Assembly (NCBI GenBank): GCA_965237985.1
Contig: OZ250161.1
Span: forward strand, 185,691 to 249,690
Origin: Candidatus Oxydemutatoraceae bacterium
Lineage (GTDB): Bacteria; Pseudomonadota; Gammaproteobacteria; Poriferisulfidales; Oxydemutatoraceae
Direction of reading: 5' to 3'
DNA: 64,000 nt
In this document: in pieces, positions 19,464-61,187 of the stretch
How positions within the stretch are numbered: the stretch's first letter is position 1
Layout of the letters: each line of letters opens with the position of its first letter
Notes under the pieces: model-generated
Told to the model about the DNA's origin: nothing
What the model saw: only the letters and a program-made list of their open reading frames with translations
Databases searched by the model: none
Made by a program: the position numbers and the translations under genes

Positions 19464-20022
19464 GTGGACACGACTGCAACGCCCGGATGGCAAAAATGGT
19501 TTCGCCTGGGTACTGATTGTCGTGCACTGGGGCGTGTTTGTTCTGGTTTTTACTTTGTTCGTGCTGGGTTTGTATATGACTGGGCTGAATTATTACGACG
19601 AGTGGTACTATCTTGCTCCTTATTATCACAAGAGTTTTGGCATGCTGCTTTTCCCAATCATTTTGTTTTGGTTTTGCCACCGAGTGCTGGTTCGTCGCCC
19701 GATTCGGTCGCCCGAACTAAAACCTTGGCAGAAAAATACGTCGCGCCTTGTACACCTCGCGATGCTTTGGTTGATTTTCGCCATTGCTTTCACGGGCTAT
19801 TTGATTCCCACAGCCCAGGGCATGCCGGTAGAAGTGTTTAGCTGGTTTCGTGTGCCGGCGCTGCTGGCCGAGCTCCCCGACCCGGAAGATATTGTTGGCG
19901 ACATGCATTATTACTTGTCCTGGGTACTGGTAATTCTGGTTGGACTGCATGCACTTGCAACACTGAAACACCATTTTTTGCATCGCGACCAGACCCTGCT
20001 TCGGATGCTGGGGCGTGATTGA
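19462..20022 (+). CDS. Cytochrome b561 family protein (CybB/YceJ-like)
   Basis: Four-TM membrane protein. 'HWGVFVLVFTLFVLGLYMTGLNYYDEWY...YHKSFGMLLFPIILFWFCHR' matches the CybB 'HW...YYD.WY...HKS.G...' signature. cytochrome b561 next to YceI is as in E. coli yceJ-yceI. Confidence 0.8.
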   Translation: MWTRLQRPDGKNGFAWVLIVVHWGVFVLVFTLFVLGLYMTGLNYYDEWYYLAPYYHKSFGMLLFPIILFWFCHRVLVRRPIRSPELKPWQKNTSRLVHLAMLWLIFAIAFTGYLIPTAQGMPVEVFSWFRVPALLAELPDPEDIVGDMHYYLSWVLVILVGLHALATLKHHFLHRDQTLLRMLGRD

Positions 20023-25287: not shown

Positions 25288-26433
25288 TCACTGTTTGCTC
25301 CTTCCCATCACCAGTGACTCTTCATCAATCTCAAACACATCCGGCGTTGAGCGACGGACACCAAAGCCATGTTCCATCAGGAGCGTCACGAGCTGTTCCC
25401 CGTTCATGAGGGCAATGGGTGTCTTATCTGCTTGGGAGGCTTCTTTGTCAGCTCCACTGCTGAAGTCGCTGGTGGTGATGATCAGGCCTTGTTCGTGGGC
25501 TCCCAGGCTGCCGCGCACCTGCTGAACTACCGGGGCCTGCACATTGTTCTTGGGTTTCCATTTCTTGGCCTGGATGGCCATTTTGATGTGGATAACATCA
25601 CCCACAACCAAGGTTCCACGAACATCGATGCCCTTATCTCCGCTGAGTTTAGTGACCTCAACCTTCTCAAAGCCCATTTCGGTGAGGAGCAGGGAAATGA
25701 GCGTCTCAAACTCGTCTGGGTTCATGGTCGACAGTTTTTTGTGCAGGGACTTTCGAGTTTTGTGATTGTGTTGTTCAATCTGAGACGCCAAGCCAGCTTT
25801 CATCCATTGACTTAGGCCGATATAGCCTTTTGCATTCTGCACAAAGAAGGGTTGTTCGCCGCGCTTCTTTTGATTCCTGATCTTGCTACCCACCTGGGCG
25901 CCCATGGTGCTTGCGGGAGTCTTTCCCGCCGTAACCAGCCAGCCCTGTTCCTGGGCCTTTGTGGTGATGTCCCTGTAGTACATCGGTTTTCCTTCGCCAA
26001 ATTCCTCAAGCACTTTCTGAGCGCAGACTATAAATGAAAATCCCGTAACGGATGGAGCGACTTTCAGTCCTGAGCTTCCCAACGACTTTGGATCCTGGGG
26101 TTCATCCTGAGGTGTCAGGCCAGCTTTCATCCATTGACTCAGGCCGATATAGCCTCCTGTATGCTGCACAAAGAGGGGTTGTTCGCCGCGCTTCTTTTGA
26201 TTCCTGATCTTGCTGCCCACCACGGCGCCCATGGTGCTTTCGGGAGTCTTTCCCGCCGTGACCAGCCAGCCCTGTTCCAGGGCCTTTCTGGTGATCTCCC
26301 TGTAGTGCATCGGTTTTCCTTCGCCAAATTCCTCAAGCACTTTCTGAGCGCAGACTATAAATGAAAATTCCATAACGGATGGAGCGACTTTACAGTCCTG
26401 AACTTCCCAACGACTTTGGATCCTGGGATTCAT
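25288..26433 (-). CDS. Mrr-like type IV restriction endonuclease with two tandem N-terminal HARE-HTH/Mrr_N winged-helix domains
   Basis: C-terminal Mrr_cat motif 'FETLISLLLTEMGFEKVEVTKLSGDKGIDVRGTLVVGDVIHIKMAIQAKKWK...VVQQVRG...GLIITTSDFS'. The N-terminus has two copies of the approximately 105-aa domain 'FSFIVCAQKVLEEFGEGKPMHYREITRKALEQGWLVTAGKTPESTMGA...RGEQPLFVQHTGGYIGLSQWM'. Confidence 0.75.
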   Translation of the reverse strand: MNPRIQSRWEVQDCKVAPSVMEFSFIVCAQKVLEEFGEGKPMHYREITRKALEQGWLVTAGKTPESTMGAVVGSKIRNQKKRGEQPLFVQHTGGYIGLSQWMKAGLTPQDEPQDPKSLGSSGLKVAPSVTGFSFIVCAQKVLEEFGEGKPMYYRDITTKAQEQGWLVTAGKTPASTMGAQVGSKIRNQKKRGEQPFFVQNAKGYIGLSQWMKAGLASQIEQHNHKTRKSLHKKLSTMNPDEFETLISLLLTEMGFEKVEVTKLSGDKGIDVRGTLVVGDVIHIKMAIQAKKWKPKNNVQAPVVQQVRGSLGAHEQGLIITTSDFSSGADKEASQADKTPIALMNGEQLVTLLMEHGFGVRRSTPDVFEIDEESLVMGRSKQ

Positions 26434-26700
26434 CGTCAGCTTTCATCCATTGACTCAGGCCGATATAACCCCGTGTATGCTGCACAAAGAGGGGTTGTTC
26501 GCCGCGCTTCTTTTGATTCCTGATCTTGCCGCCCATCTGGGCGCCCATAGTGCTTTCGGGAGTCTTTCCCGCCGTGACCAGCCAGCCCTGTTCCAGGGCC
26601 TTTCTGGTGATCTCCCTGTAGTGCATCGGTTTTCCTTCGCCAAATTCCTCAAGCACTTTCTGAGCGCAGACTATAAATGAAGGGTCATGACAAGTTAAGC
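25790..26700. repeat. Tandem repeat, about 2.8 units of about 320 bp, encoding the HARE-HTH domain
   Basis: Units start 'cagctttcatccattgactcaggccgatatagcc' at about 25793, 26121 and 26437. Confidence 0.85.
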
Positions 26701-26926
26701 GGGCGGTTGCGAGTGAGAGCGCGGGGTAAGAGCCAAGACTGAGGCTAGTACGTACTTTTGTATGTGGGCGGTAGTAATCAAGCAACCAGATTTTTGAGCC
26801 GTTGGGTTTGACGCGCAGTTGTAATCCACCACCATCTGAAAGGGTATAAATCTTCGGTTTCGATTTGGCTCGATCAATTCCCGTATTGGTTAGTGGTTTG
26901 GTCGTTTTGGCTATTTTTAGTAGCAC
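26390..26926 (-). pseudogene. Remnant of a P4/CP4-57-type tyrosine integrase (N-terminal DUF4102 arm-binding domain only), fused to a third HARE-HTH repeat and cut off from the mrr-like ORF by a 1-nt frameshift
   Basis: 'TKPLTNTGIDRAKSKPKIYTLSDGGGLQLRVKPNGSKIWLLDYYRPHTKVRTSLSLGSYPALSLATAR' matches the CP4-57 IntA N-terminus 'TKPLTDTEIKAAKPK..Y.L.DG.GL.L.IK..GSK.W...YYRP.TK.RT...G.YPA.SL..AR'. The catalytic domain is absent. The gene lies 150 bp from the ssrA 3' end. Confidence 0.7.
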
Positions 26927-27016
26927 CGCTATTTGGAGTATATGGATGATACTACTATCGGTACTACTATAAAAGTCGGATTTTACGGCACGGTTTAGGA
27001 TGCCATAGGTATTAAT

Positions 27017-27056
27017 AAAGCCCTAAAACGTTGTTTTTATTACGTTTTAGGGCTTT
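27017..27056 (-). terminator. Intrinsic terminator-like hairpin downstream of ssrA
   Basis: Perfect 14-bp inverted repeat 'aaagccctaaaacg'-N12-'cgttttagggcttt' directly after the tmRNA 3' end, followed on the minus strand by 'uuauuaau'. Confidence 0.5.
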
Positions 27057-27080
27057 ATTGGTTCTCTTAAAACCTTAAGA

Positions 27081-27434
27081 TGGTGGAGGCGGCGGGAATC
27101 GAACCCGCGTCCACGCGCCCTCTGCCATTGGTCCTACATGCTTAGCTTTGCCTTTATTTTCACTTTCCTGCCTCCGGCAAAGCGGGGAGCAGAAAAGCTA
27201 GTGCACTTCGTTGAACCGTCCGGTCGTACACAGTCCGGACAGCGACCCCGCTTTCGATTATGCCTGCAGCAGGCGGCGCGGGTGCCTCTGCCACAGACAG
27301 GCTACAGGTTTTTAGGCTGCGGCCGGTAAGCTGTATGTTTCGTCAGCTAGATTTTTTACAACAGTTTTACGAGTATGCTGCAACCTCGGCATGCACCTCC
27401 GGGTTCGCAGCTCATGTCGAAGCCAGGTCGCCCC
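27081..27434 (-). ncRNA. ssrA: tmRNA (transfer-messenger RNA, SsrA)
   Basis: The reverse complement begins 'GGGGGCGACCTGGCTTCGACATGAGCTGCGAACCCGGAGGTGCATGCCGAGG' (tmRNA 5' end) and ends '...GGACGCGGGTTCGATTCCCGCCGCCTCCACCA' (tRNA-Ala-like 3' end with CCA). The internal tag reading frame is '...GCT GAC GAA ACA TAC AGC TTA CCG GCC GCA GCC TAA'. Confidence 0.9.
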
Positions 27435-27625
27435 CTATGGTTTTCATTGGTGTTCATTGTACAGGAAATCGAGGCAGTCAACCACTGGATCAGTGTTTTC
27501 ACATTTCGCTGGTGAACTGACGTTTTTAGCACTGGCAGGCGTCTGAGTAGTGGTTTGTCGGCGGTTCGTCCGCAGCTTCCTAGTGAGGGAGCTTTGTTAT
27601 ACTGCGGGGGCCAAACGGCCTGAAA

Positions 27626-30677: not shown

Positions 30678-30796
30678 GTGTTAAGATGGCTCTGTTTGCC
30701 TGGAATGTCGGCTTTCTCAGTTGCCGGCCTGGCAAGGGGAGATACCTTTTCGTGCGGGCATTTGCTGTTGTCTGTAGTTTTTTCAGGGAGGGGAGA

Positions 30797-30904
30797 ATGA
30801 CCTACGTAGTGACTGAGGGGTGCATAAAGTGCAAGTACACTGATTGCGTTGAAGTTTGTCCGGTGGATTGTTTTCACGAGGGGGCGAACTTTGTTGGCAA
30901 TTGA
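30797..30904 (+). pseudogene. Frameshifted 5' copy of fdxA (copy 1)
   Basis: '[35 protein letters not shown]'. One extra nucleotide ('aactttgttggcaatt' against 'aactttttggtaatt') shifts the frame after 'ANF'. Confidence 0.8.
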
Positions 30905-31018
30905 TCCCGTCGAGTGCATTGACTGTGCTTTGTGTGTCCCCGAATGTCCGATCGATGCGATTGTGTTAGATTCATGCGGGCATTTGCTGTTGTCTGTGGT
31001 TTTTTCAGGGAGGGGAGA

Positions 31019-31126
31019 ATGACCTATGTAGTGACTGAGGGGTGCATAAAGTGCAAGTACACTGATTGCGTTGAAGTTTGTCCGGTGGATTGTTTTCACG
31101 AGGGGGCGAACTTTGTTGGCAATTGA
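31019..31126 (+). pseudogene. Frameshifted 5' copy of fdxA (copy 2)
   Basis: Carries the same +1 lesion as copy 1, which implies the mutated unit was itself re-duplicated. Confidence 0.8.
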
Positions 31127-31240
31127 TCCCGTCGAGTGCATTGACTGTGCTTTGTGTGTCCCCGAATGTCCGATCGATGCGATTGTGTTAGATTCGCGCG
31201 GGCATTCGCTGTTGTCTGTGGTTTTTTCAGGGAGGGGAGA

Positions 31241-31564
31241 ATGACCTATGTAGTGACTGAGGGGTGCATAAAGTGCAAGTACACTGATTGCGTTGAAGTT
31301 TGTCCGGTGGATTGTTTTCACGAGGGGGCGAACTTTTTGGTAATTGATCCCGTCGAGTGCATTGACTGCGCTTTGTGTGTCCCCGAATGTCCGATCGATG
31401 CGATTGTGTCCGATGATGATCTTCCTGAAGATCAGAATCATTTTCTGGCACTCAATGCGGAACTGACAGAAATCTGGCCGGTCATCACCGAAAAAAAGCC
31501 TGCTCCTGCTGATGCGGACCAGTGGTGTGAGAAAAAAAACAAGCTCAGTCATCTGATTCGTTGA
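31241..31564 (+). CDS. fdxA: 7Fe ferredoxin ([3Fe-4S][4Fe-4S], Azotobacter FdxA type)
   Basis: '[55 protein letters not shown]...[16 protein letters not shown]', 107 aa, near-identical in layout to FdI of Azotobacter and Pseudomonas. Confidence 0.95.
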
Positions 31565-34574: not shown

Positions 34575-35087
34575 TCATTGTAGTTTGCCGCTCGTGATGA
34601 ATTGGGAAAAAGTTTCACACCAGATCAGGGCGCTTTTCACGGTATTCAGGTCAACATGGGCGGGAATGGGGAAAGATTGGTAACCCTCGAATTGCTGAAT
34701 GTTGCCAACGAAGTGAGAGCCGGCTTTTATGGCGAGAAATGCGTTTTCGGTTTCAATATCATCCCGCCTGTTGATCAAATAAAGCTTGTAATTCGGCCCG
34801 TTGGTGACCTTGAAATTGTCTTCCAGCACGACCCAGTTTGTGCTTTGGAAGCGAACAATTTTGAAGTTTCCCCGGCCGCGGTGAAGCAGGTCGGAATCGT
34901 TCGCGGCGGGGTTGAAACGCCCGCTTTTGAGGACCTGCGTTTGAGTGCTTGAGGGATCTTCCAGCTGGCGTTTCAACTCGCGACCTTGGGGACTGGGTTG
35001 CTGTTCGATACTGCGGTGGGTGTACCAGAGAAGAAAGGCAGGGACGAGCAGGCTAGCAGCGACCACCGCGGAAATAGTTTTTTTCAT
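34575..35087 (-). CDS. DM13 domain-containing exported or membrane-anchored protein
   Basis: N-terminal hydrophobic anchor 'MKKTISAVVAASLLVPAFLLWY'. 'FKIVRFQSTNWVVLEDNFKVTNGPNYKLYLI' matches the DM13 'F.vtnGPdL.VyL' core. Confidence 0.6.
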   Translation of the reverse strand: MKKTISAVVAASLLVPAFLLWYTHRSIEQQPSPQGRELKRQLEDPSSTQTQVLKSGRFNPAANDSDLLHRGRGNFKIVRFQSTNWVVLEDNFKVTNGPNYKLYLINRRDDIETENAFLAIKAGSHFVGNIQQFEGYQSFPIPAHVDLNTVKSALIWCETFSQFITSGKLQ

Positions 35088-35960
35088 GTTCCCGCCATCA
35101 TAACTGTTCGGTTTTCAATGCCGTTTAGCCGGGTTTTGTTGCGGATAGGTCATTGCATCGCTCTCGCTTGTGCGGGAAGCAACAAACAACCAGAGGCTGA
35201 CAGATTTCATTGTCCTGCGTGTGAAGGTGAAGCAGGTCAGTTCCATTCGCAGTGGGGTTGAAATGCCCGCTTTTACGGGTCTGTAGTTGAGTTACTGACG
35301 TGCCTGACGGATCTGCCAGCTGGCGTTTCAACTCGCGACCTTGGGGACTGGGTTGCTGTTCGATACTGCGGTGGGTGTACCAGAGAAGAAAGGCAGGGAC
35401 GAGCAGGCTGGCAGCGACCACCGCGGAAATAGTTTTTTTCATGTTCCCGCCATCATAACTGTTCGGTTTTCAATGCCGTTTAGTCGGGTTTTGTTGCGGA
35501 TAGGTCATTGCATTGCTCTCGCTTGTGCGGGAAGCAACAAACAACCCGAGGCTGACGATTTCATTGTCCTGCGTGTTGAAGGTGAAGCAGGTCAGTTCCA
35601 TTCGCAGTGGGGTTGAAACGCCCGCTTTTACGGCTCTGTAGTTGAGTTGCTGACGTGCCTGACGGGCCGCCCGGCTGGCGTTTCAACTCGCGACCTTGGG
35701 GACTGGGTGGCTGTTCGATGCTGCGCTGGGTGTACCAGAGAAGAAAGGCAGGGACGAATGGGCTGGCAGCGACCACCGCGGAGATAGTTTTTCTTGCGAT
35801 CCTGCTATCATAACTGTTCGGTTTTCAATGTCGTGCTTCCGTTCGTGCGGGGACCAGCAACCCAGGGCAACGATTTCATTGTCCTGCGTGTTGAAGGCGA
35901 AGCAGGTTAAATTCGTTTGCAGTGGGGTAGACGCTGGACATCGTGCTTTTCAAAAAGGTG
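34890..35960. repeat. Tandem repeat, 3 units of about 356 bp, duplicating the first approximately 60 codons and promoter region of the DM13 gene
   Basis: Units start 'ccagctggcgtttcaactcgcgaccttggggactgggt' at about 34961, 35317 and 35673. Upstream copies give truncated ORFs 35125..35442(-) and 35561..35776(-) starting 'MKKTISAVVAASLLVPAFLLWYTHRSIEQ'. Confidence 0.9.
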
Positions 35961-36255
35961 GTCGTATTTGTACTCATCTGATTGGCTTATCGCTCTGTTT
36001 GCCAAGGCCCGGTTCCGTGTCATGATAAGACACACCTTAGGGTACGTTGCGGTGGTGCACGGTCAGTGGGTGGTCGGTCGTGTTCCGGGTTTCACGCAGT
36101 ATGTCTGGTTGTTGACTCCGGCTTCTCATAATCTCGGGGTTGCCGGCAGCAAGGCTTTATGTTTATGGAAAAAGTTTCCATTAAATGGAAGAAAATGGGA
36201 ATTACCTTCTTTTTTTGGAAAAACATAGGCACCAGAATGGTTAGCCTAGTGTTTC

Positions 36256-36696
36256 GTGGCTTCAAGAATCATCCCCAAAGCAGACTTGTGCTTGATGCTC
36301 ACGCCGTCGGTACAACGACGGATAGATACTCATCTCGGACAACGCATTCGGACCTTGAGACGTATGCGCAGCGCTACGCTTTTGGATGTGGCGACTTTGC
36401 TCAATCGCTCAGCTCAGCAGGTATCACGCCTCGAAAGCGGGGCCTGTCGGGTTTCGGTGGCGCAGCTTTGCATGATTTCCGTTTGGTATGGCGCCCGTTT
36501 GGGGTGGTTTTTTTACGGTTTGGAAGAAGCGTTTCCGGATTTTGGAAACCAGGTTCGGGAACGTTTGACGGTTTACGATTATCGCGAACGCGAAGAGTCC
36601 GAAAAGGCACTGCTTACCGCTTTTCGCGCGCTCAAGTCCAGGAATTGCCGCCGGCACTTGGTCAGGCTGGTAGAAGGCCTTGCCAACGAAGTCTAA
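36256..36696 (+). CDS. XRE-family (Cro/C1-type) HTH transcriptional regulator
   Basis: 'LGQRIRTLRRMRSATLLDVATLLNRSAQQVSRLESG' is a classic HTH_XRE. The C-terminal approximately 80 aa are unassigned. The last 30 codons lie inside a tandem repeat. Confidence 0.75.
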   Translation: MASRIIPKADLCLMLTPSVQRRIDTHLGQRIRTLRRMRSATLLDVATLLNRSAQQVSRLESGACRVSVAQLCMISVWYGARLGWFFYGLEEAFPDFGNQVRERLTVYDYREREESEKALLTAFRALKSRNCRRHLVRLVEGLANEV

Positions 36697-37625
36697 GCGG
36701 CATTTCGCTGCCTTCAGGTAGAACCGGCGGAGCCCTCCTGACCGGTCGTGTGCTTCGTGTCGGTTCCCTGTTTTTCGTGCCCTTCCCGGAGTGGAGCCGC
36801 GGGGGAGCCACTGCTTACTGCTTTTCGCGCGCTCAAGTCCAGGAATTGCCGCCGGCACTTGGTCAGGCTGACAGAAGGCCTTGCCAACGAAGTCTAAGCG
36901 GTATTTCGCTGCCTTCAGGTAGAACCGGCAGAGCCCCCCTGACCGGTCGTGTGCTTCGTGCCGGTTCCCTGTTTTTCGTGCCCTTCTCGGAGTGGAGTTG
37001 CTGGGGAGCCACTGCTTACTGCTTTTCGCGCGCTCAAGTCCAGGAATTGCCGCCGGCACTTGGTCAGGCTGACAGAAGGCCTTGCCAACGAAGTCTAAGC
37101 GGCATTTCGCTGCCTTCAGGTAGAACCGGCGGAGTCCCCCTGACCGGTCGTGTGCTTCGTGCCGGTTCCCTGTTTTTCGTGCCCTTCTCGGAGTGGAGTT
37201 GCTGGGGAGCCACTGCTTACTGCTTTTCGCGTGCTCAAGTCCAGGAATTGCCGCCGGTACTTGGTCAGGCTGACAGAAGGTCTTGCCAACGAAGTCTAAG
37301 CGGCATTTCACTGCCTTCAGGTAGAACCGGCGGAGCCCTCCTGACCGGTCGTGTGCTTCGTGCCGGTTCCTCGTTTTTCGTGCCCTTCCCGGAGTGGAGC
37401 CGCGGGGGAGGCACTGCTTACTGCTTTTCGCGCGCTCAAGTCCAGGAGTTGCCGCCGGCACTTGGTCAGGCTGACAGAAGGCCTTGCCAACGAAGTCTAA
37501 GCGGCATTTCACTGCCTTCAGGTAGAACCGGCGGAGCACCCCTGACCGGTCGTGTGCTTCGTGCCGGTTCCTCGTTTTTCGGACCCTTCCCGGAGTGGAG
37601 TTGCAGGGGAGCCACTGCTTCTGTC
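36607..37625. repeat. Tandem repeat, about 5 units of about 200 bp, duplicating the 3' end of the XRE regulator plus downstream sequence
   Basis: Units 'cactgcttactgcttttcgcgcgctcaagtccaggaattgccgccggcacttggtcaggctg(a/g)(c/t)agaaggccttgccaacgaagtctaagcgg' start at about 36607, 36812, 37011, 37212 and 37412. Confidence 0.9.
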
Positions 37626-37817
37626 AATGGTGTGTCGATGCCAATGTTGCGTGTTTTGGTTGTTCGATCCGGTTTTTGCTTGAGTGTTTTGCCCGCTTGC
37701 AGACGGTTTTCTGTGTTCAGGGGCGAGTCCTGTCAGGGGCGGCGTATGGGTTTGCCGTATTGCCAGACTTTTTGTCTCTGGGAGCCAATGCTTTTGGCAC
37801 CGTGAGCCAGACTGCGG

Positions 37818-40800
37818 ATGGTGAAATACTTTTTTGGTCAAGAAAGTCTGGTCGCCGAGGGAGGGCGGTCGGCACTCCGCCGACGTGGGTTGCCTGCCAA
37901 TGCACTGTGGTCTCGTGAGGTTTTTTTCTTGGACTGTGCTCCGGCTATGCCTGCCGTGCATTTCAAACGGCTTGCTGAACTCTTTCGTGCCAACCAGGGT
38001 GTTGCCGAAGATTTGGAAAAAGAATTTGCCCGGCCTGGGTGCTACCTGGTTCTCCCGCGCGCCGGCTTGATTTCTGCCTGGTCAAGCGGTGCCGGAGATA
38101 TATGTCGGGTTGCGCGTTTCAGTGGAGTGCGGCGAGTTGAACGGGGGCTTTTTTACCGCTTTGACCAAGCGGCTTTTGCTCAGGAGGGCGGCGGACAGGG
38201 TCAGGTTTCTGTGGCCGATGTTGAAACCTTTATGGCTGAGCTACACGATCGGATGACTGAAAGAGTCATTCGTGATGCTCAGGAACTGGAGACTTTGTTT
38301 GAGAGCACAAGTCCAGCTGCTTTTTCCGTTGTAACCCTGGGCACTGATTCGGGGCAGGCGGCCGCAGCAATCCGGGCTGCTGCCAAGTGTTTTGGTTTCC
38401 AGCTCAGCGTTGCTCAAATTGCATTTTTGTTGCGGCAATACGCCGCCTTGGGGCGCTCGCCTACCGACTTGGAACTCATGATGTTCGCCCAGGTCAATTC
38501 TGAGCATTGTCGTCACCATGTTTTCAATGCCCGTTGGGATATTGGAGGGGTCGATCCGGGGTTCACGCTGTTTGACCTGATACGTCAAACGCGGGCGCTC
38601 TCTCCGTCAAGAGTGCTTTGTGCTTACGAAGACAACGCTGCCGTTGTAGAAAGTTCGCGAGGGAACTATTGGCAGGTGGCACCAGATACCGGGGTATATG
38701 GCAACCAGCCGGGAGACCTGGTGATGGTGCTCAAGGTCGAAACGCATAATCATCCGACTGCCATTGCTCCTTTCCCTGGCGCGGGAACCGGTGCAGGGGG
38801 CGAAATTCGTGATGAAGCCGCTACCGGGCGCGGTGCCCGTCCCCTCGCTGGTATGTGCGGCTTTATCGTGTCTGATCTGCATTTGCCGGGGCACCCAAGG
38901 TCTTGGGAGAAAGCGAGTTCTGTGCCGCCGTTTTTTGCCGATCCATGCCAGATCATGCTGGAGGGGCCGGTTGGCGCCGCGCGTTTCAATAACGAATTCG
39001 GTCGGCCTGGTCTGGGTGGTTTTTTTCGGACTTTTGAACACCGACAAGGAACAACCTACTGGGGGTATCACAAGCCCGTAATGATCGCCGGCGGCATGGG
39101 GACAGCTCCGGGATTTTCTCCCAAGCGCAAAGTTCTTGAAGACGCTATGGTCGTGGTTTTGGGTGGGCCGGCAATGTTGATTGGTCTGGGCGGCGGGAGT
39201 TCGTCTTCACAGACTGCGGGGACAAACCGCAGCGAACTGGACTATGCCTCGGTGCAACGGGCGAATGCGGAGATGCAACGGCGTTGTCAGGAAGTCATCG
39301 ACCGTTGCGTTGCGTTGGGGGAAGGGAACCCAATATTGGCGATCCATGATGTTGGCGCTGGTGGGCTGGCCAACGCTGTCCCGGAGTTGCTGGCAGAAGG
39401 GGGCTGCGGCGGGACTATCGAGCTTGCCGATGTTCCGAGCGCGGATTTCGGGATGTCGCCGCTTGAGCTCTGGTGCAATGAAGCACAGGAGCGCTATGTG
39501 TTGGTCGTTGTGCGTGAACACTTAGGTCAGCTCTCTGCTTTATGCGAGCGGGAACGTTGCCCGGTGGCGGTTATTGGAGTTGCAAAAAAAAACGCTCCCT
39601 TGATCATCCGCGACCGTCGTTATGGCAACGAGCCGGCGTCTGTTCCAATGGACATGTTGATTGGAAAAGTTCCTGGTGGCTCGAAGGTTGTCAGGTTGCC
39701 ATCGCTCTCCTCCTCACGTGTCAATGGGCAGGCCTTTCAGAAGCCGGTGGTGAATCTGGGCGACATTGCGGACGCTGGCCAGGCGCAGACCTCCCCGTCG
39801 GCTACTTTTTCCCCGGCAGATGTGGAGCTTGAAGAAGCAGTAGAGCGCGTGTTGAAGTTTCCGGCTGTGGGGTCCAAAAATTTTCTGATCACGATAGCGG
39901 ATCGAACGGTGAGCGGACTGGTTTCTCGTGACCAGCTTGTCGGCCCGTACCAGGTTCCGGTCAGTGACTGTGCTGTGTGTGCCGTGGACTATATTGGTTA
40001 CGCTGGCCAGGCGATGGCTATGGGTGAGCGTACACCGGTGGCGGTTTGGAATGCTCCTGCTTCTGGACGTTTGGCCGTTGCGGAGGCCCTGACGAACATT
40101 TTTGCGGCCGATGTCCCTGCTTTGACGGACATTAGCTTGTCTGCCAATTGGATGGCGGCACAGGGTTACCCGGGTCAGGACGCGGCCTTGTATGAAACTG
40201 TCTGTGCAGTGACAACCGGGCTTTGTTCAAAATTGGGCATTGCGATTCCGATGGGCAAGGACTCACTGTCCATGCGCACCGAGTGGCGGGAACAGGGGAA
40301 GCAATATGAAGTGGTTTCGCCACTGTCACTGGTGGTCACAAGCTTTGCCCCGGTTACAGACGTTCGCAAGACCAGCACCCCTGAACTGTTATGCGATCAG
40401 GATACGGTTTTGTTGCTCATAGATTTTTCGCGCGGAAAAAACCGCCTGGGTGGTTCGGTGCTGGAGCAGGTGTGCAACGTTTTTGGGAATGTCCCCGCTG
40501 ATCTGGATTGCCCTGAGGACTTGCAAAAGACGCACGGTTTTCTGCGTCGCCTACGTGCGGCGGGAATGTTGCTTGCCTGTCACGACCGCTCGGACGGCGG
40601 GCTTTTTGTCACGCTGTGCGAAATGGCGTTTGCTGCACATACCGGCTTGGAGATAGGACTTTCCTGTGAATCCGGTGATGCACCAGGTTTTCTGTTTTCC
40701 GAGGAGCCAGGTCTGGTCATACAGGTTGCGGCCGATGCTTTGCCTCAGGTTGAACAGCTTGCCGCTGAATCTGGTCTTGGCGATTGTTGCCATCAAATTG

Positions 40801-41831
40801 GGCAACCGAGTCATGATCTCGAATTTCGTCTTTTGCTTGCCGGTCGAGCCTGGTCCTGGGACTTGATGCAATTGAAAAAATGGTGGTGGGATACGAGCTA
40901 TCGCATTCAGTCTCTGCGCGACGATTCTGTCTGCGCCCGTCAAGAGCGCGATTTTGTGATCCGAAAGGATGCGTACGGATTGCGCCCGAGCTGGCGAAAT
41001 GATGTTTCTTCTCGACAGGCTGTTGTCACTCGCAAGGCACCGGGGACCAAGGGCCTGTGCCGTCCGAAGGTGGCTGTTTTTCGTGAACAGGGCGTGAACG
41101 GCCAGCGTGAAATGGCGGCGGCTTTTCATGGTGCGGGTTTCACAGCGGTCGATGTGCACACGAGTGATCTGGCTTCAGGTCGCTGTTCTTTGAAGAGTTT
41201 TCATGGGCTGGCCGCCTGCGGAGGATTTTCCTTCGGAGACGTGCTGGGAGCGGGACGTGGATGGGCGGCCAGTATTCTTTACCATCCGTTGGTGTGCGAG
41301 GAGCTGCAAGCATTTTTTGCGCGCCCTGATACTTTCGGGATAGGGGTCTGTAATGGTTGTCAGATGTTTTCGCAAATCAAGCAACTGATTCCCGGTACGG
41401 AGTCTTGGCCGTGCTTTGTCGGCAACCGGTCAAGGCAGTTTGAAGCCCGCCTCAGCCTGGTAGAAGTGTTGGACACGCGCTCTATTTTTTTTGCGGGGAT
41501 GGCAAACAGTTTGCTTATGGTTCCGGTAGCGCATGCCGAGGGTCGGGTTGTTTTTGAAGACGGAGTCCCGGAGGCGCTTGCACACAACACCTGCCTGCGT
41601 TATGTGGGTCACGCAGATCGGGAAGCGACGGAAAACTATCCGGAGAACCCAAATGGGAGCACGGCTGGCATCACCGGTTTTTGCAATGACGATGGTCGCA
41701 TCACCATCCTGATGCCGCACCCGGAGCGGGTTTTCAGAGGAATACAGTTCTCATGGAGACCAAAGGAATGGGAGGATGCAAGTCCTTGGTCGCGGTTTTT
41801 TGAAAACGCGAAACTCTGGCTGGACAACTGA
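37818..41831 (+). CDS. purL: Phosphoribosylformylglycinamidine synthase (single-chain large PurL)
   Basis: 1337 aa. 'VETHNHPTAIAPFPGAGTGAGGEIRDE', the aminator/PurM-like duplications and a C-terminal glutamine amidotransferase domain with 'GVCNGCQM'. Confidence 0.95.
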   Translation: MVKYFFGQESLVAEGGRSALRRRGLPANALWSREVFFLDCAPAMPAVHFKRLAELFRANQGVAEDLEKEFARPGCYLVLPRAGLISAWSSGAGDICRVARFSGVRRVERGLFYRFDQAAFAQEGGGQGQVSVADVETFMAELHDRMTERVIRDAQELETLFESTSPAAFSVVTLGTDSGQAAAAIRAAAKCFGFQLSVAQIAFLLRQYAALGRSPTDLELMMFAQVNSEHCRHHVFNARWDIGGVDPGFTLFDLIRQTRALSPSRVLCAYEDNAAVVESSRGNYWQVAPDTGVYGNQPGDLVMVLKVETHNHPTAIAPFPGAGTGAGGEIRDEAATGRGARPLAGMCGFIVSDLHLPGHPRSWEKASSVPPFFADPCQIMLEGPVGAARFNNEFGRPGLGGFFRTFEHRQGTTYWGYHKPVMIAGGMGTAPGFSPKRKVLEDAMVVVLGGPAMLIGLGGGSSSSQTAGTNRSELDYASVQRANAEMQRRCQEVIDRCVALGEGNPILAIHDVGAGGLANAVPELLAEGGCGGTIELADVPSADFGMSPLELWCNEAQERYVLVVVREHLGQLSALCERERCPVAVIGVAKKNAPLIIRDRRYGNEPASVPMDMLIGKVPGGSKVVRLPSLSSSRVNGQAFQKPVVNLGDIADAGQAQTSPSATFSPADVELEEAVERVLKFPAVGSKNFLITIADRTVSGLVSRDQLVGPYQVPVSDCAVCAVDYIGYAGQAMAMGERTPVAVWNAPASGRLAVAEALTNIFAADVPALTDISLSANWMAAQGYPGQDAALYETVCAVTTGLCSKLGIAIPMGKDSLSMRTEWREQGKQYEVVSPLSLVVTSFAPVTDVRKTSTPELLCDQDTVLLLIDFSRGKNRLGGSVLEQVCNVFGNVPADLDCPEDLQKTHGFLRRLRAAGMLLACHDRSDGGLFVTLCEMAFAAHTGLEIGLSCESGDAPGFLFSEEPGLVIQVAADALPQVEQLAAESGLGDCCHQIGQPSHDLEFRLLLAGRAWSWDLMQLKKWWWDTSYRIQSLRDDSVCARQERDFVIRKDAYGLRPSWRNDVSSRQAVVTRKAPGTKGLCRPKVAVFREQGVNGQREMAAAFHGAGFTAVDVHTSDLASGRCSLKSFHGLAACGGFSFGDVLGAGRGWAASILYHPLVCEELQAFFARPDTFGIGVCNGCQMFSQIKQLIPGTESWPCFVGNRSRQFEARLSLVEVLDTRSIFFAGMANSLLMVPVAHAEGRVVFEDGVPEALAHNTCLRYVGHADREATENYPENPNGSTAGITGFCNDDGRITILMPHPERVFRGIQFSWRPKEWEDASPWSRFFENAKLWLDN

Positions 41832-54165: not shown

Positions 54166-55170
54166 ATGGTCTTGGTCACTACCGGGGAACCCGCTGGAAT
54201 CGGGCCGGACATCGCCCTGTCTTTGCGCAACGATTCTCGTTCCCATGAATACGTTCTTGTCGGGGACCTGGATATGCTTCGCGCCAGGGCACGGATGCTG
54301 GCCAGCCCGGTCAAGCTTTGCGAATACGAAAGGGAAAGCCACGAGCCTGCCCATGACCATGAACCCACGGTGCTTTCTGTTTTGCACATTCCTTTGTGTC
54401 ATCGGCCGGTCCGTCTCGGCTTTTCCGACCCCAGGAATGCCCCTTACGTCATCAGACAACTGGCAACCGCAAGCGACAGGTGTTTTGATGAAAACAGTGT
54501 CGCGATGGTGACGTGCCCGGTACAGAAGTCAGTGATCAACGACAGCGGTTTTGCTTTTTCAGGTCACACGGAATACCTTGCTCGTCGTTTTGGATGCAAT
54601 GCCACCATGATGCTGGCTCTGGAACATGGTCTCAAAGTGGCATTGGCAACCACGCATTTGCCTTTGCGGGAAGTGCCAGAAAAGGTCAGCAACGAGTGTG
54701 TCTTCCGGACGGTGAGCGCAACCAGTTCTGGTTTGCGTTCTTATTTTAATGTAGACAGCCCGCGAATCCTGGTTTGCGGGCTGAATCCGCATGCCGGCGA
54801 GGGAGGGTATCTGGGGGACGAAGAACAAAACGTGATTCAACCCGCGGTTGCCCGCGCGCGCGAATGTGGCATTGCGGTGACTGGGCCAGTAGCGGCAGAC
54901 ACGGCTTTTACGGAACAGAGCCTGGCAAACACAGATGCCGTGGTCGCGATGTACCACGACCAAGCGTTGCCGGTCATTAAAAGCATTGGCTTCAAGCGCG
55001 TGATCAACCTGACTTTAGGCTTGCCGATTTTGCGTGTTTCTGTTGATCACGGGGTAGCACTGGATCTGGCGGGCAGCGGACGTGCCGACCCGTCCAGCTT
55101 GATGCACGCTGCCGAATTTGCGTCCCGTGCATCCCTCTCGGGCAGCTCTTCGGGATCCGCTGGTCAGTGA
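54166..55170 (+). CDS. pdxA: 4-hydroxythreonine-4-phosphate dehydrogenase
   Basis: 'MVLVTTGEPAGIGPDI...GHTEYLA...CGLNPHAGEGG' are PdxA motifs. The last 15 codons lie in the repeat. Confidence 0.9.
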   Translation: MVLVTTGEPAGIGPDIALSLRNDSRSHEYVLVGDLDMLRARARMLASPVKLCEYERESHEPAHDHEPTVLSVLHIPLCHRPVRLGFSDPRNAPYVIRQLATASDRCFDENSVAMVTCPVQKSVINDSGFAFSGHTEYLARRFGCNATMMLALEHGLKVALATTHLPLREVPEKVSNECVFRTVSATSSGLRSYFNVDSPRILVCGLNPHAGEGGYLGDEEQNVIQPAVARARECGIAVTGPVAADTAFTEQSLANTDAVVAMYHDQALPVIKSIGFKRVINLTLGLPILRVSVDHGVALDLAGSGRADPSSLMHAAEFASRASLSGSSSGSAGQ

Positions 55171-56375
55171 AAGCAAAAAAACAACTGGGTCAGCATTTTC
55201 TCAGTGATCCGGAAGTCATCGAGAATATGGTCAGCGTGATTTCCCTGCGCCGGAATGAGCCGATGCTGGAAATTGGACCTGGCCGGGGAGGACTGACAGA
55301 CGCTTTGCCGGTGAGCATGTAGTACTCCATGCCGTGGAAGTGGACAGGGGTCTTGTCGATTTGTCCGGTCGGATGCATGCTCCAGTGTCTGTGCCTCGTG
55401 CATCCCTCTCGGGCAGCTCTTCAGGATCCGCCGGTCAGTGAAAGCAAAAAAACAACTGGGTCAGCATTTTCTCAGTGATCCGGAAGTCATCGAGAATATG
55501 GTCAGCGTGATTTCCCTGCGCCGGAATGAGCCGATGCTGGAAATTGGACCTGGCCGGGGAGGACTGACAGACGCTTTGCCGGTGAGCATGTAGTACTCCA
55601 TGCCGTGGAAGTGGACAGGGGTCTTGTCGATTTGTCCGGTCGGATGCATGCTCCAGTGTCTGTGCCTCGTGCATCCCTCTCGGGCAGCTCTTCAGGATCC
55701 GCCGGTCAGTGAAAGCAAAAAAACAACTGGGTCAACATTTTCTCAGTGATCCGGAAGTCATCGAGAATATGGTCAGCGTGATCTCCCCGCGCCGGGATGA
55801 GCCGATGCTGGAAATTGGGCCTGGCCTGGGAGGACTGACAGACGCTTTGCCGGGTGAGCATGTAGTACTCCATGCCGTGGAAGTGGACAGGGGGCTTGTC
55901 GATTTGTCCGGTCGGATGCATGCTCCAGTGTCTGTGCCTCGTGCATCCCTCTCGGGCGGCTCTTGCAGGATCCGCCGGTCAGTGAAAGCAAAAAAACAAC
56001 TGGGTCAACATTTTCTCAGTGATCCGGAAGTCATCGAGAATATGGTCAGCGTGATCTCCCCGCGCCGGGATGAGCCGATGCTGGAAATTGGGCCTGGCCG
56101 GGGAGGACTGACAGACGCTTTGCCGGGTGAGCATGTAGTACTCCATGCCGTGGAAGTGGACAGGGGGCTTGTCGATTTGTCCGGTCGGATGCATGCTCCA
56201 GTGTCTGTGCCTTGTGCGTCTCTTTTGGCCGGCTCTTCGGGATCCGCCGGTCAGTGAAAGCAAAAAAACAACTGGGTCAGCATTTTCTCAGTGATCCGGA
56301 AGTCATCGAGAATATGGTCAGCGTGATCTCCCCGCGCCGGGATGAATATGGTCAGCGTGATCTCCCCGCGCCGGG
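55128..56375. repeat. Tandem repeat, about 4.5 units of 271 bp, spanning the pdxA 3' end and the first approximately 55 codons of rsmA/ksgA; the last unit also carries a 34-bp internal duplication
   Basis: 'gtgaaagcaaaaaaacaactgggtcagcattttctcagtgatccggaagtcatcgagaatatggtcagcgtgat' recurs at about 55167, 55438, 55709, 55980 and 56254. The duplication at 56341..56374 is 'atatggtcagcgtgatctccccgcgccgggatga'. Confidence 0.9.
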
Positions 56376-57079
56376 ATGAGCCGATGCTGGAAATTGGGCC
56401 TGGCCTGGGAGGACTGACAGACGCTTTGCTGGCAAAGGGTGTGGTACTCCATGCCGTGGAAGTGGACAGGGGTCTTGTCGACCGCCTGCGCACCCGTTAC
56501 GATGGTTTCAAAAGATTGCATATCCACGAGTCAAATGCGCTGACATTCGATTACTTGCCGTTGGTGGAACCGGGAGCCACACGATTGGTGGGTAACCTGC
56601 CTTACAATATCTCCACACCTTTGTTGCTGATATTTTTGAAAATATCCAGATATTTCCGTGATATGCACTTTTGTTTGCAAAAGGAATTTGCCCAGCGGCT
56701 GTGCTCCCGTCCGGGAGAGCGCCACTGGTCGCGTATAGGGGCGACGCGTATGCTCTACTGCGATGCGGAAGTATTGTTTGATGTTCCAGCCGCCGCTTTT
56801 AACCCGCCGCCGAAAGTCTGCTCAAGCTATGTCTGGTTGCGTGCTTTGCAGCCACCGCCATCCTTGCAGTTTGCTGCGCGCATGGAGAAACTGGTGACCC
56901 GGTCTTTCAGTCATCCGCGCAAAAGCATTCGCAACATATTTGCTGGAATGCTGGATGGGGTGGAGCTGGAAAGTCTTGGGTTGAATCCTGCCATCAGGCC
57001 GAGGATGCTGACCTTGGGAGCTTTGGAAGCTATACTGCAACTCATGGAGGCTAAAAAACATGGGACAAGAGATAGCTGA
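56342..57079 (+). CDS. rsmA: 16S rRNA (adenine1518/1519-N6)-dimethyltransferase. The conserved N-terminus (from GTG 56254, '[20 protein letters not shown]...') is out of frame because of the 34-bp duplication, so the longest intact ORF starts at an internal ATG
   Basis: '[13 protein letters not shown]...LVGNLPYNISTPLL...' are KsgA motifs. The upstream in-frame-less segment encodes the canonical 'KxxGQHFL' N-terminus. Confidence 0.8.
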   Translation: MNMVSVISPRRDEPMLEIGPGLGGLTDALLAKGVVLHAVEVDRGLVDRLRTRYDGFKRLHIHESNALTFDYLPLVEPGATRLVGNLPYNISTPLLLIFLKISRYFRDMHFCLQKEFAQRLCSRPGERHWSRIGATRMLYCDAEVLFDVPAAAFNPPPKVCSSYVWLRALQPPPSLQFAARMEKLVTRSFSHPRKSIRNIFAGMLDGVELESLGLNPAIRPRMLTLGALEAILQLMEAKKHGTRDS

Positions 57080-57452
57080 CGGACGCTACATTATTACCAC
57101 GCAGGTTCGCACTTTGTTTTTGGAAGAGTATTCTGATTTCGAGGAAGGACGGTATGCCTTTGCTTATACCATCACGATTAAAAACGATGGCACTGTTGCT
57201 TCCCGGCTTATTTCTCGTCACTGGATCATTTGTGATTCCAACGACAAGATACAGGAAGTCCAAGGTGATGGCGTGGTCGGGGAACAGCCTTTTCTGCGCC
57301 CCGGTGAAGCTTTCTGTTACACCAGTGCGGCATTGATTGACACGCCGGTCGGAACCATGCGAGGTTCGTACAAAATGAAGGCGGTAGACGGTGAGGAATT
57401 TGACGCGCCGATTGATGAGTTCATGCTGGCCGTGCCCAACGTTCTTCACTAA
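57060..57452 (+). CDS. apaG: ApaG (DUF525) protein
   Basis: 'LISRHWIICDSNDKIQEVQGDGVVGEQPFLRPGEAFCYTSAALIDTPVGTMRGSYKM' matches E. coli ApaG '[30 protein letters not shown]'. Confidence 0.9.
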   Translation: MGQEIADGRYIITTQVRTLFLEEYSDFEEGRYAFAYTITIKNDGTVASRLISRHWIICDSNDKIQEVQGDGVVGEQPFLRPGEAFCYTSAALIDTPVGTMRGSYKMKAVDGEEFDAPIDEFMLAVPNVLH

Positions 57453-57464: not shown

Positions 57465-58322
57465 ATGGCTCTTTATGCGGTAGGTGACCTGCAGGGTTGC
57501 CTGCAGGCTTTTGAGGCGTTGCTGGAGCGCATAAATTTCGATAAAAACTCTGATCACCTGTGGTTGACAGGTGATCTGGTCAACCGTGGTCCCAGTTCGT
57601 ATGAAACACTTTGCCTAGTGCGTGATTTGAGCGACAGTATCGATTGTGTGCTGGGCAACCATGACATTTCTTTTTTGCGGATTTGTTCAGGAAGCGGCAG
57701 ACCACCGGCTGACGGGTCACTCGATAAATTGTTGAAAAGCCGGGAGTGCGGCGAGCTGTACGAATGGGTGCGGCACCTCCCGCTGGTACACCACGATATG
57801 CAGCGCAAGTTTTTGCTGGTGCACGCCGGACTGGTCCCGCAGTGGTCGATTCGTGATGCGATCGTTTTGGCAGGCGAAGTCGAAGACCGTTTGCGCGGAC
57901 CGGATCACGTTGCGTTTCTTGACAGTCTCTTTTGCCGAGGAGCACTTCAGTGGCGGGAAGACTTGCGTGGCCCCGAGCGGTTGTGCTTTATCGCCAACAC
58001 TTTGACCAGGATTCGTTTTTGCGATGAAGACGGTCGCCTGGATTTGCATGAAAACGGTCCCCCCGGTTCCCAGCCGGCGGGTTACTTTCCTTGGTTTGAT
58101 CTTGATAGTCGGAGAGAAGATGGATGGCGGGTGCTTTTTGGACACTGGTCTGCTTTAGGGCTTATGGTACGAAAAGATGTGCTGGGTCTTGACAGCGGTT
58201 GCGTCTGGGGGAGGCAATTAACAGCTTGCCGGTTATCGCCGTTGCCAGTGCAAACCTATAGTGTCCAATGTTGTCCACCTGTCCCCTCGCGTTTTGGGAA
58301 AACCATTGCAGCGGCACATTAG
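57465..58322 (+). CDS. apaH: Bis(5'-nucleosyl)-tetraphosphatase, symmetrical
   Basis: 'MALYAVGDLQGC...LWLTGDLVNRGP...GNHD' are metallophosphatase ApaH motifs. Confidence 0.9.
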   Translation: MALYAVGDLQGCLQAFEALLERINFDKNSDHLWLTGDLVNRGPSSYETLCLVRDLSDSIDCVLGNHDISFLRICSGSGRPPADGSLDKLLKSRECGELYEWVRHLPLVHHDMQRKFLLVHAGLVPQWSIRDAIVLAGEVEDRLRGPDHVAFLDSLFCRGALQWREDLRGPERLCFIANTLTRIRFCDEDGRLDLHENGPPGSQPAGYFPWFDLDSRREDGWRVLFGHWSALGLMVRKDVLGLDSGCVWGRQLTACRLSPLPVQTYSVQCCPPVPSRFGKTIAAAH

Positions 58323-59631: not shown

Positions 59632-60383
59632 TTGATTGGGACTTCCTGGATGCTTGAGACCTTCAAAGTCGCGCTCCGTAAAGCTGAGCAGGGAGACGTA
59701 AATGCTCAAACCGAGCTGGCAGAGATGTGCCACAAGGGAGAGGAGGATGTTCCACAGAACTTTGAGAAGGCAGCTTACTGGTACCACAAGGCGACAGAAC
59801 AAGGAGATGCAGCCGCACAATTCAACTTGGGAATGATGCATGTCGATGGGTGGGGTGTCCGGCAGGACGACCATGAGGCTGTCTGCTGGTTTTCAAAGGC
59901 AGCAGAACAAGAAGATGCAGCCGGGCAAAACAACTTTGGAAAAATGTACGCCGATGGGAGGGGTGTCCGGCAGGACGACCATGAGGCTGTCTGCTGGTTT
60001 TCAAAAACAGCAGAACAAGGAGATGCAGCCGGGCAAAACAACTTTGGAAAAATGTACACCGATGGGCGGGGTGTCCGTCCGGCAGGACGACCATGAGGCT
60101 GTCTGCTGGTTTTCAAAGGCAGCAGAACAAGGAGATGCAGCCGGGCAAAACAACTTTGGAAGAATGTACACCGATGGGCGGGGTGTCCGTCCGGCAGGAC
60201 GACCATGAGGCTGTCTGCTGGTTTTCAAAAGCAGCAGAACAAGGAGACGCAGCCGGGCAAAACAACTTTGGAAGAATGTACGCCGATGGGTGGGGTGTCC
60301 GGCAGGACGACCATGAGGCTGCCTGCTGGTTTTCAAAGGCGACAGAACAAGGAGACGAGGAAGGACTCTATAATCCTCTGTAG
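59632..60383 (+). pseudogene. Sel1-like repeat (SLR) protein gene interrupted by two 4-nt insertions; its three ORFs sit in three frames
   Basis: The 36-aa motif 'AAxQxNLGxMYxDGxGVRQDDHEAVCWFSKAAEQGD' repeats from 108-bp DNA units. 'gtccgTCCGgcagg' at about 60073 and about 60187 replaces 'gtccggcagg' of the other units. Confidence 0.7.
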
Positions 60384-61187
60384 ATATATGCCTGGGGGCG
60401 TGGCGGAAGGCGGGACAGTCCATAAGCCTGTTTTCTTTTTCCGTAGCGTAGCTGGAGAACGGGAGAGTGTCGGAATCAATATCTGGGGTCGGGATCGACG
60501 CCGGCTATGCGTTGGAACTTGGGTTTGTCAGATTGCCAAAGTGGTTTTTTTGTGTTGATTCTGACGTACCAAAGGGGTCAGAAGATGACCGAAAAACGCA
60601 ATTGACGCTCCGTGTCCAAAGCAGTATCTGTCACCAGGTCTTTTCCTACGGCTGAGAGTGAGTGTCGGGAAAAAAGTCGTCTCATTCAATCGTGGGTCAA
60701 AACGGATTCCGACTTTGTAGGGACCATCCGGTGAGAATACGCTCATCGATTCTTGATGGCGGGTAGTCTTGGGTTTCAAGGATCAGGAAAGCAGTCGCTT
60801 CAATCCAGTGTAGATGGTGGACATGACTGTCAAGGACAATCGGGGTCATCATAGACTGGTGACGGCTCCCATGTTCATTGTCAGTCAAAGCAGTGGATTC
60901 TTGTGCCATTTACCTCCTCCTGGTGGCTAAAGATTCCAGCGGGGAAGTGGCAATGTGAAAAAGCAGACCTTTCCAAATGGGAGAAAGCGGATCCGATCCA
61001 CTTGATCACACAGCAGAAAATTTGCCGTGTTTCAGGACGGCGTTTACCCGGTTACAATGGGGAAGCCGGAGCGTGTTCCGGCTTCCCCAAGGCAAGGCCT
61101 GCCGTGCATTTTTTTGCGGTGTCAAGCACGATGCTTGCTTGGTTTCATACCAGGACATGATGCGTCTTGGAACATTTTTATATCTGA

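Follow-up and report, generated by a model that had tools for sequence, protein, structure and literature searches.

Here we examine the border between the genes pdxA and rsmA (ksgA) in a stretch of 64,000 nucleotides (nt) from the gammaproteobacterium Candidatus Oxydemutatoraceae bacterium (contig OZ250161.1, positions 185,691 to 249,690 of the forward strand), which in its full length is called the window. At this border lies a tandem array whose units each combine the 3' end of pdxA with the 5' end of rsmA, and in its last unit a nested 34-bp direct duplication separates the start of rsmA from the remainder of the gene. The order surA-pdxA-rsmA-apaG-apaH is conserved in the gene tables of five related genomes (L001, L002, L003, L084 and L085), with pdxA, apaG and apaH assigned through NCBIfam. 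In the window pdxA is intact, the same protein being among the gene calls of the sister strain L001, and its TGA stop (55168-55170) overlaps the first of several rsmA-type GTG start codons (55167) in the motif GTGA. Coordinates of all features are collected in Table 1.

An initial annotation of the window, made from the letters alone, had put the amplification of the junction at about 4.5 times, in agreement with Tandem Repeats Finder (TRF), which reports 4.5 copies of period 271 at 55126-56345 with 97% matches and a score of 2249. Printing the units in register and aligning them extends the array beyond these bounds, leftward to the true pdxA tail at 55089 and rightward to 56481, and yields five head-to-tail units once the 34-bp insertion is bridged. 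Each unit has a GTG that overlaps a pdxA stop as GTGA (55167, 55438, 55709, 55982 and 56254), with spacings of 271, 271, 273 and 272 nt. The ancestral unit is 272 bp long, the present ones, apart from the insertion, 271-273 bp, and it is made up of 78 nt of the pdxA 3' end followed by 194 nt of rsmA; the rsmA portion thus amounts to about 65 codons rather than the 55 or so first estimated. The founding junction is marked by a CGACC microhomology, copies of which are found at 55086-55090 in pdxA (gtgccgaCCcgtcc) and at 56479-56483 in rsmA (cttgtcgaCCgcctg). No short-period tract was detected in 55000-56500 (TRF score of at least 30), and neither a sigma-70-like promoter nor a plus-strand terminator in 54800-56700, the unit itself holding no promoter-like site. 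Amplification of a promoter was accordingly dropped as a role for the array.

Upstream of the real gene, the units carry decoy rsmA 5' ends. The first decoy terminates at a TAG made by a 1-bp deletion of G, and the second, of identical sequence, belongs to an extra unit that L001 does not have. The expectation that all upstream copies stop early was therefore borne out for copies 1 and 2, which end after 51 codons owing to this deletion, but not for copies 3 and 4, which share a single ORF (open reading frame) of 182 amino acids (aa) that finishes on the TGA overlapping the real rsmA GTG.

The nested duplication in the gene-proximal unit had also been recognized at the outset, and it was recovered both by TRF (56310-56379, period 34, 2.1 copies, 100% matches) and by string equality of its two copies. 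The duplicated segment is flanked by a microhomology of only 2 nt (GA), and its second copy shifts the frame of rsmA by +1 after codon 31. The ORF that opens at the real GTG closes after 41 codons, and the only long RsmA ORF, as the initial annotation had described, is without the conserved GQHFL segment: the basic region KAKK and motif X (GQHF) are held by the short head ORF, while the remainder forms a separate body. The gene call in the public record (P0001) is a 243-aa protein that starts at Met21 (56348) and from which residues 1-20 are absent.

Comparison with L001 places this lesion in context. L001 is an independent metagenome contig (European Nucleotide Archive (ENA) ERZ25766962, ctg16586_26x_l) that encodes the exact ApaG protein of the window and aligns with it at 99.2-99.6% identity in two long alignments covering about 17 kb; it is a different strain of the same species. 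Its array consists of four GTG-anchored copies where the window has five, its rsmA is intact at 263 aa, and it is free of the 34-bp duplication. The L001 units match window units 2-5 at 99.6%, unit-specific substitutions included, and because the same diverged units were assembled independently from different samples, the array is real. When one 34-bp copy is dropped from the window, its rsmA becomes identical to the intact L001 gene at 792/792 nt and 263/263 aa; as the gene is otherwise unchanged, the 34-bp event must be extremely recent or an error. The rsmA gene lies in one frame in all five related genomes, and none of the three array-bearing relatives from another species (L002, L084 and L085) carries such a 34-bp duplication.

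An error is possible, though unlikely: the duplication would then be an assembly or polishing artefact within the repeat, the organism's rsmA would be intact like that of L001, and the array would still be real. The duplication occurs in one assembly only, that of P0001 and the 2.0-Mb contig, the near-identical units around it make read placement ambiguous, and no decay is seen elsewhere in the 792 nt of rsmA. A second small frameshifting insertion is private to the same assembly, namely a GTCC at 60185, within the Sel1-repeat array at 59788-60355, which is a 4-bp tandem-copy-like insertion relative to L001 and splits the second Sel1-repeat gene (153 aa in L001) into overlapping ORFs at 60093-60383 and 60205-60558. 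However, indels between the two strains, beyond changes of 1-2 bp, comprise tandem-copy-like differences of 4, 4 and 7 bp together with the 34-bp duplication, there are none in coding DNA outside arrays, and the lineage makes tandem duplications at all scales. To our knowledge, a perfect 34-bp tandem copy is also not a typical long-read error.

Taken at face value, the duplication has clear implications for the protein. Against TIGR00755 (ksgA, cut-off 171), the intact L001 protein scores 210.9 bits over model positions 1-246 and the window ORF 180.7 over positions 21-246, and the Pfam RrnaAD match of the latter begins at model position 25, compared with 3 for the intact protein; the best PDB matches are RsmA/KsgA chains (3tqs, 3uzu, 7afo and 1qyr). 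The pattern GQ[HN]FL is present in 121 of the 122 RsmA homologs retrieved, the sole exception without a related motif being the truncated call of this genome. Motif X and the body stand on one ORF in L001, whereas in the window the motif is on the separate 41-aa ORF; there, motif X is still joined intact to motif I in four places, all of them on decoys, a continuity that the real gene has lost. In Escherichia coli KsgA, the motif X substitutions G16D, Q17L, N18A and F19A leave methylation defective both in vivo and in vitro, with a further contribution from the basic region (McGaha et al. 2025, PMC11789486). Since motif X is missing from the body and its mutants are methylation-defective, by analogy the body alone is expected to be inactive, with no dimethylation of 16S rRNA at A1518/A1519. 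The enzyme family of KsgA is characterized in one study as 'generally not essential for growth' (PMC2807437), and an rsmA null allele should therefore be viable. Three options had originally been put forward, of which an N-terminally truncated or inactive allele is the best supported, given the intact gene in the 99%-identical L001, the complete identity outside the duplication, and the defects of the motif X mutants.

The second of these options, that expression is rescued so that active RsmA is still made, appears highly improbable. Ribosomes that slipped by +1 within the second 34-bp copy would produce a protein with an 11-aa insertion, and as read from the sequence such a slip at CUC-CCC-G would bring translation back into the proper frame. 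Alternatively, fragments might assemble after reinitiation at Met21, whose ATG (56348) lies 30 nt upstream of the stop of the head ORF and is preceded by GGGA at a 6-nt spacing; such reinitiation may well yield the body, though one without motif X. Neither a prfB-like slippery site nor a Shine-Dalgarno-like stimulator was apparent on reading 56330-56380, however, and thus nothing resembling the internal Shine-Dalgarno and poor stop context of prfB; spontaneous +1 shifting is rare, and the 11-aa insertion would adjoin the active-site cap. A body made separately would lack motif X, which is required (PMC11789486).

The third option, a slippage-prone phase-variable switch, would make the 34-bp duplication one state of a reversible rsmA ON/OFF system exploited by the population. 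ON (L001) and OFF (window) alleles do exist in one species, the affected segment has four intact spares upstream, and arrays of the lineage differ in copy number between strains. Yet the switch is improbable: the locus offers just two copies of a 34-bp unit rather than a simple-sequence contingency tract, a single OFF genome is known beside three array-bearing relatives without such a duplication, and any tandem duplication is reversible, so that reversibility alone is no evidence of design. We see no evidence for programmed frameshifting or for a dedicated switch.

Amplification of the same junction is also found in a second species. Three genomes (L002, L084 and L085, about 93% identical to one another in nucleotide sequence) carry 4, 3 and 5 copies, respectively, of a 221-bp unit (243 bp in one unit) at pdxA/rsmA. 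As read from the sequence, the ends of this array differ from those in the window, its junction lying at a TGCCG microhomology. A third species (L003) has a single-copy GTGA junction and no array. By nucleotide identity, the second and third species are closer to each other (about 88%) than either is to the window species (about 76%), and two independent origins of the pdxA/rsmA arrays are the simplest reading. Given how dense arrays are in these genomes, it is no great surprise that a single junction should have acquired them twice. The controls were 80 rsmA loci in syntenic position, taken from other Proteobacteria (chiefly Gammaproteobacteria) and totaling 1.37 Mb. None of the 80 has more than one rsmA 5' end, and amplification of the rsmA 5' end is specific to this lineage among the loci compared. 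One control (L035) does have an array upstream of rsmA, which was set aside as an unrelated repeat of 118 bp, situated between genes and not in the vicinity of any pdxA.

A further possibility is that the decoy array is functional, either tuning rsmA expression through a coupling relay from pdxA or acting through the decoy peptides. Both founding lengths, 272 and 221, are 2 mod 3, a phase that lets an internal ORF extend precisely between successive GTGA motifs and that would preserve translational coupling. Across strains, 12 of the 16 internal units keep an ORF from their GTG to the TGA of the following GTGA, arrays occur at the same junction in two species, and on reading the sequence no strong Shine-Dalgarno precedes the GTG. 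We nonetheless consider a function of this kind improbable. Window units 1 and 2 and L001 unit 1 break the chain by stopping after 51 codons, the species nearest to the one with 221-bp units lacks the array, and no promoter-like site occurs in the unit. In addition, the phase coincidence would arise by chance in about 1/9 of cases, the units being copies of one another and therefore representing two independent events only, and no phase rule holds elsewhere, the periods 355, 118 and 316 all being 1 mod 3.

The pdxA/rsmA array is one of about ten in the window, a context that the initial annotation had missed, and arrays abound at related loci. Under identical TRF settings, those with periods of 50 bp or more account for 11.5% of the window, 14.1% of L001, 12.1% of L002, 11.1% of L084, 12.0% of L085, 11.4% of L086 and 14.2% of L088, a range of 11-14% across the roughly 0.2 Mb sampled in two species; the corresponding figure for the 80 control loci is 0.14%. 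The third species is array-poor, with 6.7% at L003 and 0.0% at L087: in this relative (1.92-Mb circular genome, ERZ25069837) the 21-kb rsmA locus has one array and the 24-kb purL locus none, which provides a natural contrast to its nearest relatives at 11-14%.

The nine further window arrays have periods of 61-355 bp and 2.5-5.2 copies. Seven of the ten reach a gene end or sit just upstream of a gene (hydrolase/cytochrome b561, fdxA, DM13, desaturase, suhB, pdxA/rsmA and epimerase), and the remaining three have periods divisible by three (327, 201 and 108), the first of them also lying at the mrr 5' end. This is the pattern expected, we infer, of duplications that originate at any site but persist only where genes stay intact. 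Several arrays create decoy 5' fragments, as with a 35-aa fdxA fragment at 31019 that precedes the intact 107-aa fdxA at 31241. Confinement of arrays to gene 5' ends was considered and rejected, since 3' ends are straddled at the hydrolase gene in the window and at fdxA, a PDDEXK nuclease and a polysaccharide synthase in related loci. A dispersed repeat or mobile element was likewise rejected: units of different arrays have no 11-mer in common, which identifies the arrays as local duplications.

Furthermore, arrays turn over fast. In the purL neighborhood of the second species they occur at the fdxA 3' end (period 70), the 3' end of a PD-(D/E)XK nuclease gene (442) and the purL 5' end (316), and match none of the window's arrays there. 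The 70-bp array at the fdxA 3' end comprises 4.9 copies in L086 (4285-4627) versus 20.9 in L088 (3177-4627), both from the same sample (ERZ25071281). Another array was noted in L002, where a 127-bp unit is repeated 10.8 times (13237-14609) between the genes for a membrane-fusion protein and an MFS transporter, occupying the syntenic gap that holds Sel1-repeat genes in the window species.

Table 1. Features of the pdxA/rsmA locus and tandem arrays of the window (positions in the window; periods in bp).
Feature	Position	Strand	Period	Evidence or context
pdxA, intact, 334 aa	54166..55170	+		Pfam PdxA E=1.2e-94; TIGR00557 pdxA 366 bits
Array unit U1	55089-55359	+		unit alignment
Array unit U2	55360-55630	+		unit alignment
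Array unit U3	55631-55902	+		unit alignment
Array unit U4	55903-56175	+		unit alignment
Array unit U5	56176-56481	+		272 bp + 34-bp insertion
Decoy rsmA 5' fragment 1, 51 aa, motif X + motif I	55167..55322	+		Pfam RrnaAD model 3-48, E=1.6e-10
Decoy rsmA 5' fragment 2, 51 aa, identical to fragment 1	55438..55593	+		ORF list, unit alignment
Decoy ORF across units 3 and 4, 182 aa	55709..56257	+		Pfam RrnaAD, two N-terminal stretches, E=2.3e-23
rsmA head: GTG, codons 1-31, then 10 out-of-frame codons + TGA (56377-56379)	56254..56379	+		Pfam RrnaAD model 3-29
34-bp direct duplication, copy 1, GAATATGGTCAGCGTGATCTCCCCGCGCCGGGAT	56310..56343	+		TRF 100% identity, string equality
34-bp direct duplication, copy 2	56344..56377	+		string equality with copy 1; not in L001
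rsmA body, only long RsmA ORF, 245 aa from ATG 56342	56342..57079	+		TIGR00755 ksgA model 21-246
apaG, intact	57060-57452	+		NCBIfam ApaG equivalog
apaH, intact	57465-58322	+		NCBIfam ApaH equivalog
Array	18666-19472		167	hydrolase 3' end to cytochrome b561 start
Array	25792-26681		327, in frame	HARE-HTH N-terminus of Mrr-like gene
Array	30749-31409		222	fdxA upstream region + 5' end
Array	34945-35834		355	DM13-domain gene 5' end
Array	36608-37620		201, in frame	within 548-aa ORF without significant family match
Array	44406-44615		61	upstream of fatty-acid desaturase gene
Array	49310-49697		118	upstream of suhB
pdxA/rsmA array	55089-56481		271-273	pdxA 3' end + rsmA 5' end
Array	59788-60355		108	Sel1 repeats
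Array	63310 onward (63310-64000)		276	epimerase gene 5' end

Two of the in-frame arrays form part of further features of the window. In the minus-strand region 25288-27435, a tmRNA gene (27081-27435, tag DETYSLPAAA) adjoins an N-terminal integrase fragment fused to a HARE-HTH domain (26390-26926), followed by an Mrr-type restriction endonuclease whose HARE-HTH domain has been doubled in frame by the 327-bp array; the region resembles what is left of an island that had integrated at ssrA. Just upstream of purL (37818-41831), the 548-aa ORF at 36159-37805 consists mostly of five in-frame 201-bp repeats, has no significant Pfam match, and may be either a real repeat protein or an ORF made by the array; at this site in related species, the only ORFs are short and unannotated. 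Elsewhere in the window, four tRNA genes are clustered at 15457-16518 (Pro-TGG, Arg-TCT, His-GTG and Lys-CTT), with tRNA-Thr at 13191-13267. GC skew is positive in 30 of the 32 2-kb bins, typically at +0.1 to +0.2 and with no sustained switch, and nearly all identified genes are on the plus strand, so that a single replichore appears to contain the whole window, its genes being co-oriented with replication.

The clade itself is known only from ENA long-contig assemblies, with circular genomes of 1.9-3.0 Mb, including ones of 1.92 and 3.00 Mb. Identity to the nearest proteins outside the clade is at most 46% for RsmA and at most 53% for PurL, housekeeping proteins whose unusual distance from everything outside the clade suggests a deep or fast-evolving gammaproteobacterial lineage. 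Among the matches listed in a scan of genome contigs for relatives, identity was about 40%. Searches of Joint Genome Institute (JGI) metagenomes with an exact 29-mer of the species and a clade-degenerate 34-mer returned no further relatives, and we found no literature on this clade or on such arrays in Gammaproteobacteria.

Together, these findings are probably explained by a gene-border array of the variable-number tandem repeat (VNTR) kind, generated by slippage and unequal recombination, in which rsmA has very recently acquired a spontaneous loss-of-function mutation. The array resembles VNTRs in that its units are arranged head to tail with 97% matches and are local in origin, and in that its copy number varies between strains (5 versus 4 in the window species; 4, 3 and 5 in the second). 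It would have originated when a 272-bp segment, from 78 nt before the pdxA stop to rsmA codon 65, was duplicated once by slippage between the CGACC microhomologies, and the observed variation in the number of these direct repeats would have followed from unequal recombination or further slippage. Internal copies resemble the functional one in a mosaic fashion, with 21/36 identical positions at the pdxA-tail edge, 33-35 of 42-43 over the 42 nt before the real GTG, 137-141/142 over rsmA nt 1-143, 7-8/15 in a 15-nt patch and 36-37/37 over the last 37 nt. Such a mosaic points to an old founding duplication whose dead edges have drifted, the rsmA-derived parts having probably been homogenized by gene conversion or unequal exchange.

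The array is tolerated because the amplified segment straddles the border, leaving the first copy with a whole pdxA and the last with a whole rsmA, while the copies in between would be dead rsmA 5' fragments. The lineage makes arrays at very many gene borders, and purifying selection would be expected to spare those that straddle a border or stay in frame; the pdxA/rsmA array is thus the ordinary product of an unusual lineage-wide property. The 34-bp tandem duplication in the last copy, found in this strain only, would be a very recent addition that puts the gene into the +1 frame and gives a null allele of a non-essential gene. Reversion could occur through loss of one 34-bp copy or through recombination with an upstream decoy unit.

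Several points weigh against this explanation. The 34-bp duplication is known from the assembly alone and lies inside a repeat, where polishing is hardest and where an error of consensus or assembly is possible, and the GTCC insertion at 60185 is a second frameshifting change in another array of the same window. Arrays with different end points at one junction in two species, and founding units of the same phase in both, hint at something beyond neutrality. Moreover, the explanation names no cause for the high duplication rate of the lineage. In a broader alternative, which we hold to be very unlikely, the lineage would have evolved, or would keep for its usefulness, a genome-wide set of 60-450-bp gene-border arrays that serve as evolvable switches or dosage dials at gene starts, and the OFF state of rsmA would be one captured state. 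Decoy 5' ends would then keep coupling in phase and serve as templates by which slippage or gene conversion breaks or repairs the real gene.

If the VNTR-like array with a recent null allele is the correct explanation, there are implications for annotation as well as for biology. The 243-aa 'RsmA' of the public record would represent a broken gene, and the 51-182-aa 'RrnaAD' ORFs upstream of it would be duplication debris, not paralogs. Few known genes are as highly conserved as rsmA/ksgA, and it would be unusual to find it naturally inactivated in a genome that is intact in other respects; such an allele, if true, predicts unmethylated A1518/A1519 and slower maturation of the 30S subunit in that strain.

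Tandem duplication on a comparable scale is known from Ehrlichia ruminantium, for which a 2005 PNAS paper reportedly describes repeat copy numbers that vary between and within isolates and an association of repeats with truncated gene fragments. A published TRF survey gave that species a tandem-repeat content of 6.3% (mean period 139 bp, 4.8 copies on average), described there as the bacterial maximum to date and compared with 0.38% in E. coli, and slipped-strand mispairing is cited as the source of the copies (PMC3287509). Like E. ruminantium, the clade described here combines many long-period arrays, which here amount to several per cent of the DNA sampled, with a small genome. Unlike that AT-rich alphaproteobacterium, it is gammaproteobacterial and has a GC content of about 53%, its local array density is higher (11-14% of the roughly 0.2 Mb sampled, a coverage above 10% that exceeds the 6.3% described as the bacterial record), and among the sequences amplified is the start of a housekeeping gene that is universally conserved, the real copy of which is broken in one strain. 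If this coverage extends genome-wide, the clade would offer a second natural system, independent of the first, in which to study what drives runaway tandem duplication, with an array-poor close relative for comparison.

VNTR-141 and VNTR-105, two loci of Wolbachia, are similar in having periods of 100-140 bp, near-identical units, and copy numbers that vary among close strains, attributed to slippage and concerted evolution (PMC3287509). Their units are intergenic with hairpins, whereas the unit here is coding sequence of two adjacent genes. Simple-sequence contingency loci, which vary in phase through slipped-strand mispairing as in Neisseria and Haemophilus, are tracts in surface or restriction genes where a unit of 1-7 nt is repeated many times, and they recur across strains. 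As in those loci, a repeat in 5' coding sequence changes the reading frame of rsmA and can revert; unlike them, the rsmA repeat has two copies of 34 nt each, lies in a gene for ribosome biogenesis, and has been seen once. Programmed frameshifts of the prfB type differ in their slippery site and stimulator, features not seen here, where the rsmA genes of relatives lie in one frame. Finally, mutants of ksgA in E. coli and Chlamydia likewise show that loss of KsgA activity is viable (PMC11789486; PMC2807437), but those mutants were made in the laboratory or selected, whereas the allele described here would be a natural one, arising by tandem duplication in an uncultured organism.

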